Below, one piece after another: positions 11,439 to 28,639 of a stretch of 32,000 bases of DNA. This DNA is from Lyngbya sp. CCAP 1446/10 (GTDB lineage Bacteria > Cyanobacteriota > Cyanobacteriia > Cyanobacteriales > Microcoleaceae): NCBI RefSeq assembly GCF_026130175.1, contig NZ_JAIGNI010000057.1, positions 1 to 32,000 of the forward strand, in the 5' to 3' direction. A program made the position numbers and the translations under genes. The notes under the pieces are model-generated. The model searched no databases. It saw nothing but the letters and a program-made list of their open reading frames with translations, and was not told the origin of the DNA. Every line of letters begins with the position of its first letter. Position 1 is the first letter of the stretch.

Positions 11439-11639
11439 GGCTTTTGAGATGGTTTCCTATCAAGGGGAAAAACTGTCAGAAGAGAATGCTGATTTTGGTT
11501 TTCGCCCTAGCGATGTCCCTGAGTTACTCAGCCTGCCGTGCCGACAAAAGTGTGCCGAGCAGTGCCTCGTCGAAGATGCCGACTGAAATATCAATCAAGC
11601 AGGCATACAGTGTCAGTAACTCAGGTCTAAAGACACTGA

Positions 11640-11853
11640 GCTTGCAAGAGTAATCCAGCAAGCTATGCTGACCAGCCTAAGTCTTCACTGACTACGTTTT
11701 TCGAGTCACGACACCCCGGAATGCGAAGCTAGTTCCTTGCTCTGTCATCTGCAATTAAACAGTTTTAAAGTCACTGAAACAGTGTTGCAGGTCTAAAAAG
11801 CTCTTAAAACATTGGCGAAGCTCACATAACCTAAGCAATTAGAGAAGGCAGAA
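11640..11853 (+). ncRNA. Putative IscB omega-RNA (HEARO-class) scaffold; ends uncertain
   Basis: Non-coding leader directly 5' of iscB, which is where omega-RNAs of IscB loci are encoded. Stems seen: agcttgc/gcaagct (11639-45/11658-64), ctgcaa/ttgcag (11749-54/11785-90) enclosing cactg-aaa-cagtg (11772-84). No covariance model was run. Confidence 0.35.
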
Positions 11854-13125
11854 ATGTCAAATTACACATTCGTCATTGATTCAAGCAAACAGCCGTTAAG
11901 TCCATGCCATCCCTCGGTAGCAAGGAAATTACTAGCGTCGGGTCTTGCTGCGGTATTCCGCAGGTATCCATTTACGATCATTCTAAAAAAGGAGATAATC
12001 ACCACACCCCAACCCATTGAAATCAAAATAGACCCAGGCTCTAAAACAACTGGGATAGCCTTAGTTCAAGGGAACAAAGTTATCTTTGGTGCTGAACTAA
12101 CTCATCGTGGTCAAGCTATTAAAGCAAGTCTTGAGTCTCGTAGAGCGTTGCGTCGAGGCAGAAGAAATCGCCATACTCGCTACCGCAGGGCTAGGTTCCT
12201 AAATCGGACTAAACCAAAGGGTTGGTTGGCTCCATCACTAACACATCGGGTACTGACGACACTGACTTGGGTAAATAAGTTTATTCGGCTAGCTCCAGTC
12301 AGTTCGATTTCTCAGGAGCTTGTGAGATTTGACTTGCAGCAAATAGAGAATCCTGAAATATCAGGCATTGAGTACCAGCAAGGCACTCTTTCTGGCTACG
12401 AAGTGCGTGAGTATTTACTTGAGAAATGGGACAGGAAGTGCGCTTACTGCCCGGTGGAAAATATTTCCTTGCAGATAGAACATATTCATCCTCAATCAAA
12501 AGGTGGCTCTAATCGTATCTCCAATCTATGCCTAGCCTGTGAACATTGCAACCTCAAGAAAGGTGCTCAAGATATCAATGTTTTCTTAGCTAAGAAACCT
12601 GATGTTTTGAAAAAGGTACTTGCCCAAGCAAAGCGTTCATTAAAAGACGCAGCAGCGGTCAATTCTACTCGTTGGGCATTGTTCAATGCTCTTAAAACTA
12701 CTGGGCTGACCGTTACTACTGGTTCAGGAGGTAGAACCAAATTCAATCGAACTCGCCTCAATCTTCCTAAGACTCATTGGCTAGACGCTGCTTGTGTCGG
12801 CGAAGTAGAAACATTAAAAGTCCTAACCAAAAAACCTTTGCTCATCAAGGCAACTGGTCATGGCTCCAGGCAACTGTGCAGAACTGATAAATTTGGTTTC
12901 CCGTCCCGATATGTCTGCCGGTTCAAATTTGTCAAAGGCTTCCAAACTGGCGACATCGTGAAAGCGATTGTAACCAGTGGAAAGAAAATCGGAACCTATG
13001 TCGGGCGAGTCGCTGTTCGCTCTACTGGCAGTTTCAATATTTCTGCGTCAACATTAGTCCAAGGTATTAGTCACAAATATTGTTCAGCAATTCATAAAAA
13101 GGATGGTTATGCTTACTCAAATTAA
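11854..13125 (+). CDS. iscB: IscB RNA-guided endonuclease (PLMP, split RuvC, bridge helix, HNH, TI-like C-terminus)
   Basis: KQPLSPCHPSVARKLL..YPFTIIL (PLMP-type). IKIDPGSKTTGIALV (RuvC-I). RRALRRGRRNRHTRYRRARFLNR (RRXRR/bridge helix). GWLAPSL. SQELVRFD (RuvC-II). CAYC..EHIHPQSKGGSNRISNLCLACEHCNLKKG (HNH). THWLDAACVG (RuvC-III). 423 aa. Confidence 0.9.
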   Translation: MSNYTFVIDSSKQPLSPCHPSVARKLLASGLAAVFRRYPFTIILKKEIITTPQPIEIKIDPGSKTTGIALVQGNKVIFGAELTHRGQAIKASLESRRALRRGRRNRHTRYRRARFLNRTKPKGWLAPSLTHRVLTTLTWVNKFIRLAPVSSISQELVRFDLQQIENPEISGIEYQQGTLSGYEVREYLLEKWDRKCAYCPVENISLQIEHIHPQSKGGSNRISNLCLACEHCNLKKGAQDINVFLAKKPDVLKKVLAQAKRSLKDAAAVNSTRWALFNALKTTGLTVTTGSGGRTKFNRTRLNLPKTHWLDAACVGEVETLKVLTKKPLLIKATGHGSRQLCRTDKFGFPSRYVCRFKFVKGFQTGDIVKAIVTSGKKIGTYVGRVAVRSTGSFNISASTLVQGISHKYCSAIHKKDGYAYSN

Positions 13126-13209
13126 GCTAGATTCAATGCGATTGAAATCGCCGAGCCGCTTCCCTCTCAGGACTAAAGTCGCTGAGTTTCCCACTTACCG
13201 AGTTTTCCT

Positions 13210-13566
13210 ATGAAGCTAAACATCAAGGTCAAAGACAAAGTTGTTACAGCCACTTTGATCGACAGCAAAACCACTCATGATTTTATTTCCCTGCTGCCAT
13301 TAACGCTGACTTTAGAAGATTACGCGAGAACCGAAAAAATCAGCGATTTGCCAAAAAGATTATCTACAGAAGATGCACCCGCAGGCAGCGATCCTGCTGT
13401 TGGAGATATTGCTTATTACGCTCCCTGGGGAAATTTGGCGATGTATTACAGCGATTCTGGATACGCAAACGGACTCGTTATCCTCGGAAAAATAGATGGT
13501 GGCATCGAGGCATTTAATGTGCCTAGCTCTGTAGAAGTGACAATCGAGCTTGTTCAATCGCCATAA
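13210..13566 (+). CDS. Cyclophilin-like fold protein
   Basis: 118 aa. TATLIDSKTTHDFISLLPLTLTLEDYARTEKISDLPKRLSTEDAPAG..PAVGDIAYYAPWGNLAMYY matches the family pattern as recalled. Confidence 0.75.
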   Translation: MKLNIKVKDKVVTATLIDSKTTHDFISLLPLTLTLEDYARTEKISDLPKRLSTEDAPAGSDPAVGDIAYYAPWGNLAMYYSDSGYANGLVILGKIDGGIEAFNVPSSVEVTIELVQSP

Positions 13567-13641: not shown

Positions 13642-14418
13642 ATGACGACGAACGAGAAGGGAAAGTACACAGGAAAAGTTGCGTTTGTGACCGGAGGAGC
13701 CAACGGCATCGGTCGAGCTACGGCGCTGGCGTTTGCTCGTGAAGGCGCTCATGTAGTGGTCGCTGACATTGCAGAACCAGGCAATCAAGAAACGGCCCAC
13801 ATGATTGAGGAACTCGGCGGGCAGGCGATCGCCGTTAGGTGCGACGTGACGCAGGCCGAGGACGTGAAGGCGGCCCTAGCCAAGACCGTTGAGGCTTTTG
13901 GGCGGCTGGACTTCGCCTTCAACAACGCAGGCATCGAGCCGAGGAAGCCAGCTCCGACTGCGGAGTACGAGGAGGAGGAGTGGAACCGGATCGTAGACAC
14001 CAACCTCCGGGGTGTTTTCCTGTGCATGAAGCACGAGATTCCGCTGATCCTCAAGCAGGGAGGTGGCGCGATCGTCAACACCTCATCGGGCGCAGGAATC
14101 ATCGGCATCAAGGGCAGCCCCGCGTACACCGCCGCGAAGCACGGCGTGATCGGACTGACCAAGGCGGCGGCCCTCGACTACGCCGCGCAGAACATCCGCG
14201 TCAACGCCGTCTGTCCTGGCTACATAGACACCCCGATGATGGGTCGCTTCACCGGCGGCACTGCCGAAGGGCGCGCGAAGGTGATTGCGGAGGAGCCGAT
14301 CGGACGGATGGGCAAGCCGGAGGAGATCGCCGCGGCCGTTCTCTGGCTGTGTTCGGATGGAGCTGCCTTCGTCATTGGACACGCTATGGTCATCGACGGC
14401 GGCCAAACGGTGCAGTGA
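13642..14418 (+). CDS. SDR-family oxidoreductase
   Basis: [18 protein letters not shown]. Very GC-rich. Confidence 0.9.
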
Positions 14419-14556
14419 TGTTCGGGGCGATCGTCTATGAGCCAGCCGGAGGAGATGGACGTGAACGAGATTCTGTTCCGACCCACGCGCCAAGTGCTGT
14501 AAAATTCCCCTGCCTTAGTACAGTTCCAGAAGTAAACAAATTAGGAGCATCAATTC

Positions 14557-15618
14557 ATGTACAACACAAAAGCTTATTCCGCAGCCAGTGCAACATCACC
14601 GCTGTCCTCTACCACGATCGCGCGGCGCGATCCAACCGAACACGACGTGCAGATTGAAATCCTCTTCTGCGGCGTCTGCCACTCCGATGTCCATTCCGTC
14701 CGCAACGAGTGGAGCAGCATCATGCCCACGGTCTATCCGATCGTCCCTGGTCACGAGATGGTCGGTCGCGTCACCAAAGTCGGCTCGGCAGTTAGCAAGT
14801 ATAAACCCGGCGATCTCGCAGCGGTCGGCTGTATGGTCGATTCGGATGGAACCTGCCCCCAGTGTAAAGCTGGCTTTGAGCAGTTCTGCCCTTCCCTGAC
14901 CCTCACCTACAACTCCCCGGACAAGCACAAGACCGCTCCTGTCACCTACGGCGGCTATTCCAACAGCATCGTCGTCGATGAAAGCTTCGTTCTGCGCGTC
15001 CCCGACCACCTCGATCTCGCCGGAGTTGCACCGCTTCTCTGCGCCGGGATTACAACCTATTCTCCCCTGCGCCACTGGGGCGTAACGAAGGGCAAGAAGG
15101 TGGGCGTGGTCGGTCTCGGCGGGCTGGGCCACATGGGTGTGAAGTTCGCTCATGCGTTCGGAGCCCATGTCGTCGTCTTCACTACTTCGCCCAACAAGAA
15201 GGAAGACGCACTCCGCCTCGGTGCCGATGAAGTCGTCGTCTCCCGCAACACCGACGAAATGCAGAAGCACGCTGGCAGCTTCGATTTCATCCTCGATACC
15301 GTATCCGCCAACCACGATATCAACGCCTATCTCAACCTGCTCACCCGCGACGGCAACATCACCCTTGTCGGCGCACCTGAGAACCCCCTAGATGTCTCGG
15401 CATTCAGCCTCATTATGGGCCGCCGCAGTCTCTCCGGCTCTAACATCGGCGGCATCGAGGAAACCCAGGAGATGCTCGACTTTTGTGGCAAGCACAACAT
15501 CACTGCGGATGTCGAAGTCATCCCCATCCAGAAGGTCAACGAAGCCTACGAGCGACTGCTCAAGTCCGATGTGAAGTACCGCTTCTGTATCGATATGGCA
15601 TCCCTTAAATCTGAATAA
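14557..15618 (+). CDS. Zn-dependent NAD(P)-alcohol dehydrogenase (cinnamyl-ADH/YahK-like)
   Basis: GVCHSDVH, GHEMVGRV, structural-Zn Cys cluster C..C..C, GVVGLGGLGH Rossmann motif. aggag lies 8 nt upstream of the ATG. Confidence 0.9.
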   Translation: MYNTKAYSAASATSPLSSTTIARRDPTEHDVQIEILFCGVCHSDVHSVRNEWSSIMPTVYPIVPGHEMVGRVTKVGSAVSKYKPGDLAAVGCMVDSDGTCPQCKAGFEQFCPSLTLTYNSPDKHKTAPVTYGGYSNSIVVDESFVLRVPDHLDLAGVAPLLCAGITTYSPLRHWGVTKGKKVGVVGLGGLGHMGVKFAHAFGAHVVVFTTSPNKKEDALRLGADEVVVSRNTDEMQKHAGSFDFILDTVSANHDINAYLNLLTRDGNITLVGAPENPLDVSAFSLIMGRRSLSGSNIGGIEETQEMLDFCGKHNITADVEVIPIQKVNEAYERLLKSDVKYRFCIDMASLKSE

Positions 15619-16489: not shown

Positions 16490-16540
16490 ATGCAGAAGCG
16501 CAAACTTGACAACAGTAACCAGTGTTCGCAGAGGAGGTAA
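16490..16540 (+). pseudogene. 16-codon uORF that is a relic of an aldo/keto-reductase 5' end
   Basis: MQKRKLDNSNQCSQRR*. The first 31 nt match the AKR fragment start at 17255 at 25/31 positions (MQKRKLDNSN vs MQTRKLGNSN). ggag lies 5 nt upstream of its ATG. Its TAA (16538-40) lies 2 nt before the GTG of the next gene. Confidence 0.35.
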
Positions 16541-16542
16541 GT

Positions 16543-17187
16543 GTGGATACCACCCGCTTGGAGGCATTTAGCGACGGCGTATTCGCGATCGCCATCACCC
16601 TCCTGGTCCTCGAAATCAAAGTGCCGCCACCCAATACGGCACTTGGAGCAGAACTTCTCCAACTCTGGCCATCCTATCTCGCCTACGTGGTCAGCTTTCT
16701 GGTGATCGGCGCAATCTGGATCAACCACCACGCTATGTTCCAACACATCGTCCGCGTGGATGGGACGCTGTTGCTGCTGAACGTCCTCCATCTGATGCTG
16801 ATCGCATTTCTGCCGTTTCCAACCGCGGTACTCGCCGAAGCATTTCACCGGGCAACGGACGAGCCAATTGCCGCTGCGTTCTACAGTGGGATCTTGACCG
16901 TCATTGGTATCTTCGTCACCGCTATGTGGCGGTACGCGGCTCACGGGCATAGGCTGCTCGACCCCCGTCTCACGGCGAAAAAGGCACGGCAGATCGGACG
17001 GCAGTTCCTGATCGGGCCGATCGTTTACGCGATCGCCACTGTAGTTGCGCTGGTCGCGCCCTGGCTGGCGGTGCTGCTCTTCATCTTTCTCAACCTCTTC
17101 TATCTCTGGCCTCGCTGGGGTCACAGGAGTACCCTATCCCACACCGGCGACTCCGCTATGAACAGCGATCGCAGCGAAGACGAGTGA
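16543..17187 (+). CDS. TMEM175/DUF1211-family (K+ channel-like) membrane protein
   Basis: Signature RLEAFSDGVFAIAITLLVLEI plus 5-6 further TM segments. GTG at 16543 is preferred because gaggagg lies 5 nt upstream. The tracked start is 16522. Confidence 0.85.
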   Translation: MDTTRLEAFSDGVFAIAITLLVLEIKVPPPNTALGAELLQLWPSYLAYVVSFLVIGAIWINHHAMFQHIVRVDGTLLLLNVLHLMLIAFLPFPTAVLAEAFHRATDEPIAAAFYSGILTVIGIFVTAMWRYAAHGHRLLDPRLTAKKARQIGRQFLIGPIVYAIATVVALVAPWLAVLLFIFLNLFYLWPRWGHRSTLSHTGDSAMNSDRSEDE

Positions 17188-18076: not shown

Positions 18077-18973
18077 TCATTTTTTCTTGAGCAACTTTTT
18101 GAGCAGCTTAGGAACCTCCGAAGGCCTAGCAGCCACCGGTATTTCCGCCTCTTCAAAGGCAGCCATTTTGTTTTGGGCCTTCACACCAAAGGCTTTCTGG
18201 GCAGCAGCGCGAGAACTGATCAGGATGCCTGCGTGGCCCAAAGACGGGCCTTTGGGAGCGTAGCGGCCGGCCAGATAAGCAACCACAGGTTTGTCGATCG
18301 CCGAAGCGATGTAAGAAGCAGCAGCTTGTTCACTCCAACCCCCAACTTCCCCGATCAAAACCATCGCCTCCGTACTGTCATCTTCGTCCAAAAGTTGCAG
18401 CCACTGCATAAAAGAAGAACCAACAATCGCGTCGCAGCCAATACAAACCGCCATCGACTGTCCCAAACCCGCCTCAGTCAGTTCTAGGGCAACTTCGTAA
18501 GTCAAAGTGCTGCTGCGGCTGATTACGCCGATCGAGCCGGGAGTGTAAAATTCCTTGGGGTGAGTTCCCAGCAGCAGTTGATCGGGGACAATAATCCCTG
18601 GACTGTTGGGCCCGATCACCAAAGTTTCCGTGGCCTCTGCTTTTCTGACTAAGTGCACCAGATCCAGAGGAGGCACTCCCTCCGTGACGATCGCGATTTG
18701 CCGAATTCCCGCCGCGATCGCTTCTAGAGCCGCATCCAGCACCCAGTAAGCGTCTACCAAAATTACCGTAGTATCAATATGACCTACTGCCGCCACGGCT
18801 TCTTCTACCAAATCAAAAATCGGAATTCCCTCCAAATCCAGCCCTCCCCGACCGGGACTGACACCGGCGACTACATTAGTGCCGTATGCTTTCATCATCA
18901 GGGCGGCGCGGGTTGAGGCGGGAGATTCTGTAATGCCCTGTACTAGGACTTTGCTTTCAGGAGTTAAATTCAT
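18077..18973 (-). CDS. sucD: Succinate--CoA ligase subunit alpha
   Basis: 298 aa. VLVQGIT...YGTNVVAGVSPGRGG and the phosphohistidine loop SLGHAGILIS. Confidence 0.9.
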   Translation of the reverse strand: MNLTPESKVLVQGITESPASTRAALMMKAYGTNVVAGVSPGRGGLDLEGIPIFDLVEEAVAAVGHIDTTVILVDAYWVLDAALEAIAAGIRQIAIVTEGVPPLDLVHLVRKAEATETLVIGPNSPGIIVPDQLLLGTHPKEFYTPGSIGVISRSSTLTYEVALELTEAGLGQSMAVCIGCDAIVGSSFMQWLQLLDEDDSTEAMVLIGEVGGWSEQAAASYIASAIDKPVVAYLAGRYAPKGPSLGHAGILISSRAAAQKAFGVKAQNKMAAFEEAEIPVAARPSEVPKLLKKLLKKK

Positions 18974-19054
18974 GTTTTCCTAGTTAACACTCGATCTTTA
19001 AAAAGTAGAAGGCTTTGATTTGTCCAGAGTTCTCGTTTTGCCGATCGACTCTCG

Positions 19055-20287
19055 CTACTTGGCAGATGATACAGCTTGAGCCACAGCTTCATCTAAAGTT
19101 CTAGCTAGCTGCACCGGCAACTGTCCCAAACGCTTTTTCACTGCATCAGCATCGATCGCTACCAGGCGAAGCACAACTTGAATGTGCCGGTTGGCGCGAG
19201 CTTTCCGTTCCAAATAGCCCACTACGGCCGCGATGATTTCCTCGCTCTTGGAAGCGCTGCCCAAAATATTTACAAGTATCACCTTAACGCTTTTATCCTG
19301 AGCGACTAACTCCAGACCCAAATCCGTGCGATCGCGCAAAGCATTTACTGCATCGTAGCGGTCTAGGGAACCCATATTCAGAAAATTAGCTGGTTTTCCT
19401 CCTTGGTGGGCTACAGCATCCAGAGTTGCCATTGTCAAGCCGACTCCGTTGCACAAAATCCCGATATTCCCATCTAGTTCGATTAATTGCAGGGATTCGG
19501 AATTCGAGATTGGGGATTGAGATTTGGAGTCAAACTGCGACGGCGACTGCTGCGCCTTTGAGTTAGAATTCCGGCGATCATCGCCCACATAGGGATTTCT
19601 CCTGTCCCCTACCAACCCGCTGCTTTGGCTTTCACCCGAAAGTGCGGCCAAGTCTGGATGCCGTCCCAAGGCATCGTCGTTGGCGCTGACTTTACCATCT
19701 AAAGCCATTAACTCTCCCGTTGGACTGATGCCGAGAGGATTGATTTCTACTAAATCTAAATCTTTTTCGACAAACAACCGGTACATTTTCTCGACAATGG
19801 TACTCACCGATTGAATCAAATCTCCCTGCAATCCCATTTTCAGCATCAGACGCCTCGCGTAGAATGGCGAAAATTCCTGGTCTACGGCAACTTGCTGCAT
19901 TTGGTCGATCGACCGTTCGACATCCATACCTCCTTGTCTCGAACCCAGAAGTACCGGGCGGCGGGCTATGGGGTCTAGGAGTACAGCCAAGTACAATTCT
20001 TGGTCAGCGTTGTACTTGGCTTCTGCTAACAGGACTTGCGGATATTCATTCTCGATCGGCAAATTAAAAATTGTTTGAGCCGCAGCGACTGCATCGATCG
20101 TATTTTCCACAAATTTAATGCCACCCGCCCGGCCTCGTCCCCCAGCCCGCACTTGCGACTTAAGTACAACTGGGTAGGGAATTTTCAGCCCTTTGAGGTC
20201 GGCGGGTTTGTCAATCCGCTGCGACGGCAAAATCGGAATTGCCATCTGGCGAAATAAAGATTTAGCTTGGTACTCTAACAAATCCAT
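19055..20287 (-). CDS. sucC: Succinate--CoA ligase subunit beta (ATP-grasp), with an expanded inter-domain linker
   Basis: Start chosen at MDLLEYQAKSLF (canonical SucC N-terminus; the tracked ORF starts 25 codons earlier). VLKSQVRAGGRGRAGGIKF, LDGNIGILCNGVGLTMATLD, NILGS. Confidence 0.88.
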   Translation of the reverse strand: MDLLEYQAKSLFRQMAIPILPSQRIDKPADLKGLKIPYPVVLKSQVRAGGRGRAGGIKFVENTIDAVAAAQTIFNLPIENEYPQVLLAEAKYNADQELYLAVLLDPIARRPVLLGSRQGGMDVERSIDQMQQVAVDQEFSPFYARRLMLKMGLQGDLIQSVSTIVEKMYRLFVEKDLDLVEINPLGISPTGELMALDGKVSANDDALGRHPDLAALSGESQSSGLVGDRRNPYVGDDRRNSNSKAQQSPSQFDSKSQSPISNSESLQLIELDGNIGILCNGVGLTMATLDAVAHQGGKPANFLNMGSLDRYDAVNALRDRTDLGLELVAQDKSVKVILVNILGSASKSEEIIAAVVGYLERKARANRHIQVVLRLVAIDADAVKKRLGQLPVQLARTLDEAVAQAVSSAK

Positions 20288-20581
20288 TTTTAATAACGAG
20301 TGATGGGTATTTTGCAACAAGCAATTCGTCGTTCTTGGCAATTCATAATTAATAGATACCAATTAGCTTTTTGTCAAGTTAAAATTTAAAAGTTAGGGCT
20401 TTGAGCTTTTAATTTTAATCTTAAATTTTTATGTTGCCGATTACTTATTCGGTATTGCTAGAAGATCACCTATCGATTAAGCTGTTTTGTAGTTTTTGTT
20501 TTGCGATCGACTAATTGCAAAATTTTACTGTTGACTCGCGCGGGGACAGGGTAGGGAGATGGTTGGTAGTTGTTTTATAGC

Positions 20582-28153: not shown

Positions 28154-28639
28154 ATGAACATCAGGATGTCTGTGATGGATGGCGGCGAAGCCACAAAATA
28201 CGTCAAATATATCACCAAAGGCAATGCTACAGCTATAATTGCTTTAACCGCGAGTGTGTTGGAAGAAGAAAAGGCGATCGGGCTTTCAGCCGGTTGTGAT
28301 GACTTCCTTCGCAAACCCTTCGTTGAACACAGTATTTTTGATGCACTAGCTAAGCATTTGGGAGTCAAATATATCTATGCAGAAACAATATCTCCTGTCT
28401 TGGATGATACAGAAAAAAGCCCATTGACATCGGAAGATTTAAGCTGTATGAATCAAGAATGGATTAGTCAACTATACGAAGCTGCACTTGAGGCAAATAC
28501 TAACCTCGTGTTACAAGTCGTAGGAGAAATTCCTCAAACAGAAACTCGTTTGATAAAATCCCTAACAAAACTTGCCAGTGAATTTAAGTTTGAGCAGATT
28601 CTTGATTTAGTTGAACCCCTAATAAGCAATGAATCTTAA
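28154..28639 (+). pseudogene. 3' remnant of a hybrid sensor kinase (second half of a receiver domain plus a helical C-terminal module)
   Basis: Begins inside the receiver beta3 region (NIRMSVMDGGEAT...AIIALTASVLEEEK..GCDDFLRKPF). In-frame TAG at 28136-38. No HisKA/HATPase or receiver beta1-beta2 upstream. VDLF is readable in another frame just upstream. Confidence 0.5.

Follow-up and report, generated by a model that had tools for sequence, protein, structure and literature searches.

The locus described here lies on the forward strand of a 32,000-nt stretch of DNA from Lyngbya sp. CCAP 1446/10 (contig NZ_JAIGNI010000057.1, positions 1 to 32,000), all of which was analysed and which we call the window. 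Within it, a gene predicted to encode a lipoprotein is interrupted by a 1598-bp element that consists of an omega-RNA gene, an open reading frame (ORF) for the predicted RNA-guided nuclease IscB and two transposon ends, each with a bulged hairpin. The individual features are as follows:

11486..11611, forward strand: 5' part of the interrupted host gene, with a predicted lipoprotein signal peptide and linker, MLILVFALAMSLSYSAC...KQAYS
11596..11611, forward strand: predicted omega-RNA guide CAAGCAGGCATACAGT, 16 nt of host DNA directly 5' of the scaffold
11612..13209, forward strand: the whole non-autonomous IscB element, 1598 bp, delimited by sharp homology edges and empty sites
11612..11830, forward strand: omega-RNA scaffold, HEARO (RF02033), cmscan score 152.4 bits (gathering score 83)
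11620..11640, forward strand: bulged hairpin in a subterminal position, CTCAGGTCTAAAGACACTGAG, separated by 8 nt from the edge of the element
11854..13125, forward strand: iscB ORF, 423 aa, ATG start, zero internal stops
13126..13209, forward strand: downstream transposon end (the TnpA 'left end'), class-A relatives being alike up to the base before ATGA
13166..13186, forward strand: the bulged hairpin again, CTCAGGACTAAAGTCGCTGAG, separated by 23 nt from the edge of the element
13210..13213, forward strand: host ATGA, the conserved insertion target and presumed TAM
13210..13566, forward strand: 3' part of the host gene, cyclophilin-like domain, 118 aa, beginning at an in-frame Met

The protein belongs to the IscB family. 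Its domains follow one another as a PLMP-like N-terminus, RuvC-I, an Arg-rich bridge helix, RuvC-II, HNH, RuvC-III and a conserved C-terminal tail, and the motifs can be located at residues 59-63 (IDPGS), 96-118 (RR-rich), 123-129 (GWLAPSL), 154-160 (QELVRFD), 196-199 (CAYC), 209-213 (EHIHP), 224-237 (NLCLACEHCNLKKG) and 308-316 (HWLDAACVG). The original prediction had described an uninterrupted 423-aa ORF with these motifs in this order and with the expected residues at the catalytic positions, and the profile searches and alignments that it proposed as a check agree with it on each count. Thus, the NCBIfam equivalog model NF040563 (guided_IscB) recognises the ORF with 464.3 bits (cutoff 175), and the Pfam domains present are RRXRR (247 bits) and HNH, the latter at residues 196-238 and therefore inserted between RuvC-II and RuvC-III. 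D60, E155, H308 and D311 align to D61, E193, H340 and D343 of OgeuIscB, forming a split RuvC, while the HNH histidine H210 corresponds to H247; all five OgeuIscB residues are among those named as RuvC or HNH catalytic residues by Kato et al. (PMC9640706). Among 42 relatives, D60, E155, H210, H308 and D311 are all invariant, as are the cysteines of the HNH knuckle (C196, C199, C229 and C232) and N233. At the N-terminus, PLSP (residues 14-17) aligns to the PLMP region of the solved IscBs, with P17 invariant and P14 and L15 nearly so in the same 42 proteins. When the sequences of solved structures were searched with phmmer, TbaIscB, OgeuIscB and HfmIscB ranked first, and a profile built from 42 family members improved the matches to solved IscBs to E = 1e-57; both kinds of match end at about residue 344. 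The C-terminal residues, from about 317 to 423, are conserved among the relatives. Compared with L001, the closest protein relative in our genome scan, dN/dS is 0.13 for the protein and 0.09 from residue 317 onward, so the tail is under selection; an AlphaFold2 model made from a 56-sequence alignment was too poor for a comparison of folds (pLDDT 47), and this region (about 317-423) may have the TAM-interacting fold. On these grounds we read the ORF as an intact OMEGA-class IscB, for which RNA-guided, TAM-dependent cleavage of double-stranded DNA is predicted.

Systems of this kind are well known, and this very member is already named 'RNA-guided endonuclease IscB' in UniRef. The identical protein (100%) is listed at NCBI as 'HNH endonuclease [Lyngbya sp. 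CCAP 1446/10]', a label which, together with the name 'McrA' given to relatives by JGI and the Pfam HNH matches themselves, would suit a stand-alone restriction endonuclease of the McrA-like HNH kind. However, the HNH domain sits within a split RuvC and is accompanied by the RRXRR bridge helix, the guided_IscB equivalog is matched, a cognate HEARO RNA lies upstream and the top solved-structure matches are IscBs, which together refute that identity; we give it practically no chance of being correct. IscB is the ancestor of Cas9, and a weak match to the NCBIfam Cas9d model covers the HNH region (51 bits, below the 375-bit cutoff).

Immediately upstream lies an RNA gene that had escaped the original prediction. 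The HEARO match has an E-value of 2e-32 and covers the full model (positions 1-211 of 211); its 3' end is 23 nt from the iscB ATG on the same strand, the position of a cognate upstream omega RNA, and HEARO is the sole Rfam family found in the whole window. HEARO is what is today called the IscB omega RNA. [quoted passage not shown]

To fix the limits of the element, we compared it with 80 relatives from cyanobacteria and with five homologous loci that have no interruption (L081-L085), the latter found in a protein-based scan with the downstream host protein. Nucleotide homology to the relatives begins sharply at 11612 (GTCAGTAAC...) and stops at about 13213 (...TTTTATGA), the outer flanks being unrelated. 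The five homologous loci, whose flanks are 81-90% identical to those in the window and which share its cupin, cyclophilin-like and SDR gene arrangement, have no insertion: ...CAAGCAGGCAGACAGT (...ACAGT) runs straight into ATGAAG..., that is, position 11611 is joined to 13210. It follows from this junction that the element spans 11612-13209, that the target was not duplicated at all and that the ATGA at 13210-13213 is host DNA. A search of the complete genome for an empty site had been suggested in the original prediction as a way to define the ends; the homologous loci served this purpose. An exact 22-mer spanning the reconstructed empty site had no match in metagenome contigs.

Both ends bear the same 21-nt hairpin, CTCAGnnCTAAAGnnnCTGAG, which occurs exactly twice in the window (0.04 occurrences expected). 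The two copies are in direct orientation, each with an 8-bp stem, one bulged base and a TAAA loop, and the inner stem shows compensatory changes among the relatives (GGC/GCC, GAC/GTC, GTC/GAC, CCC/GGG and CTC/GAG). In the terms used for IS200/IS605 elements, the upstream copy, at 11620..11640, is known as the TnpA 'right end'; it also forms the first hairpin of the omega RNA. IS200/IS605-type (ISC) elements are marked by imperfect, directly oriented subterminal hairpins at either end, by the lack of terminal inverted repeats and by a fixed tetranucleotide that adjoins the insertion without target-site duplication, and from the sequence we assign the hairpin layout to that end architecture.

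The interrupted gene can be reconstructed with some precision. Its 3' part matches Pfam Cyclophil_like2 (121 bits, residues 5-113), no stop codon breaks the reading frame where the two parts meet in the reconstructed empty site, and in the uninterrupted homologues L081-L085 the same signal peptide and the domain share one frame. As reconstructed, the host gene would specify a lipoprotein precursor that starts at the ATG at 11486 and comprises the predicted signal peptide MLILVFALAMSLSYSAC, a linker and the Cyclophil_like2 domain; the element, placed at an in-frame internal Met codon, thus parts the signal peptide from the domain. The 'oxidoreductase island' in which the gene had been placed is, consequently, an incomplete account of the setting, which lacked the interruption of this lipoprotein (cyclophilin-like) gene. 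The host 5' ORF now extends into the element as far as a stop at 11651-11653 and so reads 42 nt into the scaffold, where translation might interfere with folding of the RNA.

Once the 5' edge of HEARO (11612) and the empty sites are known, a guide (11596-11611) and its target become predictable, although both had been declared not knowable from the sequence. The guide length of 16 nt is carried over from OgeuIscB, for which 16-17 nt are enough (PMC9640706). CAAGCAGGCATACAGT is unique within the window, and the target can be predicted to be the empty allele, in which CAAGCAGGCATACAGT is followed by ATGA. This tetranucleotide is almost fixed in the clade: over 51 distinct insertion sites, the 4 bases after the element are ATGA in 50 and GTGA in the remaining one, and the fifth base is A in 59%. 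Insertion of HEARO beside ATGA or GTGA was reportedly noted in 2009. ATGA is likely to combine the roles of TAM and TnpA target. A promoter scan of the interval between the cupin gene and the guide revealed no convincing sigma-70-like promoter.

Taken together, these observations suggest the following course of events. The element would have entered the lipoprotein gene directly 5' of ATGA by single-strand transposition of the TnpA type, for which a TnpA acted in trans. Transcription of the host gene would then run into the element and generate a two-part RNA, whose 5' portion of about 16 nt (11596-11611), derived from the host, would serve as the guide and whose next 220 nt or so would fold as the omega-RNA scaffold. 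Loaded with this RNA, IscB would recognise an uninterrupted allele by CAAGCAGGCATACAGT and the TAM ATGA that follows it, and the HNH and RuvC sites would cut both of its strands. Repair from the element-bearing copy would reinstall the element, as the retention (homing) model has it. We therefore consider it very probable that the locus is a non-autonomous IS200/IS605-type (ISC) element, composed of iscB, an omega-RNA gene and a hairpin at either end, which would be retained by RNA-guided homing.

Non-autonomy follows from the content of the 1598 bp, where iscB and the RNA gene are the only genes. There is also no match to Y1_Tnp among the 30 main ORFs of the window, which had been described as free of TnpA, and no recurrent TnpA-like small ORF was found beside the 80 relatives. 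Such a lack is normal for iscB: just 1.5% or so of iscB genes have a tnpA nearby, and about 98.5% do not (Meers et al., bioRxiv 10.1101/2023.03.14.532601). The exact protein is reported on one contig only and there is thus no sign of recent multiplication in the Lyngbya genome. Absence of TnpA from the 32 kb, confinement of the identical protein to a single contig and the want of a recurrent TnpA-like ORF near the 80 relatives are also what one would expect of a stranded or domesticated copy, immobile without TnpA, left without a target once fixed, and either decaying or adopted by the host, for example for RNA-guided regulation. This we judge improbable, for several reasons: (i) all catalytic residues are kept, unlike in the nuclease-dead exapted relatives; (ii) both TnpA-type hairpins are intact; (iii) the nearest homologous loci are empty, so that the insertion is neither ancient nor conserved; (iv) purifying selection is strong in the family, which has several copies in many genomes; and (v) active iscB elements usually have no adjacent tnpA. 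Of the two terms that had been offered for this copy, 'non-autonomous or domesticated', the first is therefore kept, whereas the intact hairpins and the empty nearest loci speak against the second.

An IS605-type tnpA (Y1_Tnp) and tnpB pair does occur at L168:4890-6282, about 0.6 kb downstream of the closest sibling of the window element. The ends of this pair are without the hairpin of the window element, and it is therefore not an obvious helper. Only this sibling shares the whole element, with 91.7% identity over 11611-13219, and its iscB is truncated to 387 aa.

That the element arrived recently, as originally proposed, is borne out by the fact that the nearest homologous loci are empty, and not by the two kinds of evidence first put forward for it. 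The contrast between an AT-rich iscB and GC-rich flanking genes was real in the lines that had been counted, but IscB has 43.7% GC against a window mean of 47.8%, the genes of the window range from 36 to 62%, and the 3' part of the host gene (13210-13566) has 43.4%. Similarly, the interval 11439-13209 is indeed free of HIP1, and the window as a whole contains 19 copies (0.9 expected), none of them between 10509 and 13824; however, about 1.05 copies would be expected in 1771 bp, and with P(0) at about 0.35 the absence is no more than chance. GC content and HIP1 were consequently discarded as uninformative on the age of the insertion. It is rather the neighbouring SDR and Zn-ADH genes that look atypical in composition; with the TMEM175-like gene they occupy 13642-15618 and 16522-17187 and have 58-62% GC and a GC3 of 72-75%. 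At the other end of the window, the ORF at 28154-28639 has only the C-terminal half of a response-regulator receiver domain (profile positions 48-110) and is immediately followed by a complete receiver-GGDEF gene. This ORF may represent a fragment, or its start may have been mis-called.

Relatives of the window element are numerous. A scan of representative genomes returned 534, with many copies in several genomes, and the best 80 are all cyanobacterial, with 65-90% protein identity. The ORF is open over essentially its full length at 75 of these 80 related loci, and nearly all of them have a full HEARO. Their insertion sites show a pattern that the window copy does not follow: at 25 of 51 distinct sites the element sits exactly at the start codon of a host gene, compared with 3.6% of the other ATGA sites in the same loci. 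For this count the element end was called independently of ORFs, and a start codon was defined as the ATG of an ORF of at least 100 aa with an in-frame stop no more than 15 codons upstream in the reconstructed empty site. Ten of these ORFs were tested, and 9 match Pfam families, the first domain beginning at residues 4-6 in 3 of them. The elements nearest to ours in their ORF, for instance, are inserted between exbB and the start codon of exbD. Moreover, 41 of 52 loci have GGAG, GAGG, AGGA or GGGG in the end of the element, 4-18 nt upstream of the host ATG; this Shine-Dalgarno (SD)-like motif is found in 7 of 52 native upstream regions and in 11% of random 15-mers, although the few end classes mean that the 41 are not independent events. 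Examples from the last 20 nt of such end classes are AAGGGGGAAG, ACGAGG, GTGAGG and CGGAGG; the class to which the window element belongs (ACCGAGTTTTCCT, within 13190-13209) is the exception, having no SD-like motif. We found neither the start-codon bias nor an SD-bearing end described in the searchable literature, which excluded Weinberg 2009 and Altae-Tran 2021.

The pattern in the family fits the survival of insertions that spare the host gene and have their guide transcribed. A stronger version, to which we lean somewhat less than to its opposite, is that the clade has become specialised for start codons, with ATGA as target and TAM and with an SD-like motif in most end classes that can re-drive translation of the displaced gene, the window copy being a 'miss' on an internal Met codon. 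On this start-codon reading, sites between the host 5' UTR and the ATG would let the host promoter and UTR supply both transcript and guide. One could go further and see the clade's elements as portable expression cassettes, which land at start codons with a ribosome-binding site of their own and are tolerated or even favoured by the host for reasons beyond homing. The exact start codons at 25 of 51 sites, the SD-like ends and the fact that the downstream ORFs are real genes, some with a Pfam domain from residues 4-6 onward, would all agree with this; but the survival of transcribed, harmless insertions accounts for the same pattern, the SD count loses weight with the few end classes, and the idea is inapplicable to the window copy, which lies at an internal Met codon, takes the signal peptide off its host protein and has an SD-less end. 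We regard it as very unlikely, and retain homing of a non-autonomous element as the working interpretation.

The window element is mosaic with respect to L001, L161 and L165, being 88-90% identical to them over 11808-13115 (the ORF and about the last 45 nt of the RNA) and different from them in the 5' part of the scaffold and in the downstream end. At a site shared by three Microcoleus loci, in front of a gene for a CHASE2-domain protein, the element at L026:5754-7344 is 64% identical to those at L056:5744-7356 and L065:5744-7358, while the flanks are 96-98% identical. Either two insertions took place independently at one ATGA, or one element was replaced by another, and the presence of 64%-identical elements at one site hints at its re-use. 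Four other loci from Microcoleus or Microcoleaceae (L032, L038, L040 and L050) have an IscB element exactly at the start codon of a CoA_binding plus Ligase_CoA gene (starting MNLTPESKVLVQGITES), with left flanks that differ; the window has a sucD/sucC-like pair, to which this type of gene is homologous, at 18077-20362 on the reverse strand. Additional RNAs and nucleases accompany some of the elements: an extra full-length HEARO at L005:5042-5258 (reverse strand), head-to-head with the IscB element; a second IscB, 62% identical, with a 5'-truncated HEARO at L024:9103-10570; and further full-length HEAROs downstream of the respective IscB elements at L066:9583-9827 and L079:8305-8523.

Considered by itself, the window copy is of little importance: it is an ordinary representative of a family already studied in depth. 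It does, however, provide a fully specified natural IscB system, with scaffold (11612-11853), predicted guide (11596-11611), presumed TAM (ATGA) and a compact protein of 423 aa, and the combination of an ATGA TAM with an IscB of this size may appeal to groups that work on genome editing. For transposon biology, the start-codon sites, the SD-like ends and the site with two different elements are a more interesting lead; the start-codon pattern would tie the need of the IscB guide for transcription from outside to a concrete insertion strategy.

Comparison with characterised systems places the element among close kin: (i) OgeuIscB and its omega RNA (PDB 7XHT, 7UTN and 8CSZ) share with it the domain order, the five catalytic residues and a guide at the 5' side of a scaffold of about 200 nt encoded just upstream of the gene. 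They differ in protein length (496 aa in OgeuIscB, 423 in the window protein), in the HNH domain, which in the window protein has a four-Cys zinc knuckle (C196, C199, C229 and C232) as in TbaIscB, in the C-terminal domain, which is not alignable by sequence, and in the TAM, presumably ATGA here and NWRRNA or NNRR in OgeuIscB. (ii) The IscB element of Geobacillus stearothermophilus (bioRxiv 10.1101/2023.03.14.532601) is likewise a non-autonomous IS200/IS605-type element with the omega RNA at its right end, a guide drawn from flanking DNA, a TAM that is also the TnpA target beside the left end, and the same orientation as the upstream gene; it belongs to another host phylum and has another target motif. 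(iii) HEARO RNA (RF02033; Weinberg et al. 2009) is matched at full length directly upstream of an HNH/IscB ORF, with no notable difference. (iv) TnpB of IS605 elements and Cas9d follow the same logic of a transposon-borne RNA-guided nuclease, but TnpB has RuvC only and a guide at the 3' end of its RNA, whereas Cas9d is larger and CRISPR-associated, and the window protein stays below its 375-bit cutoff.
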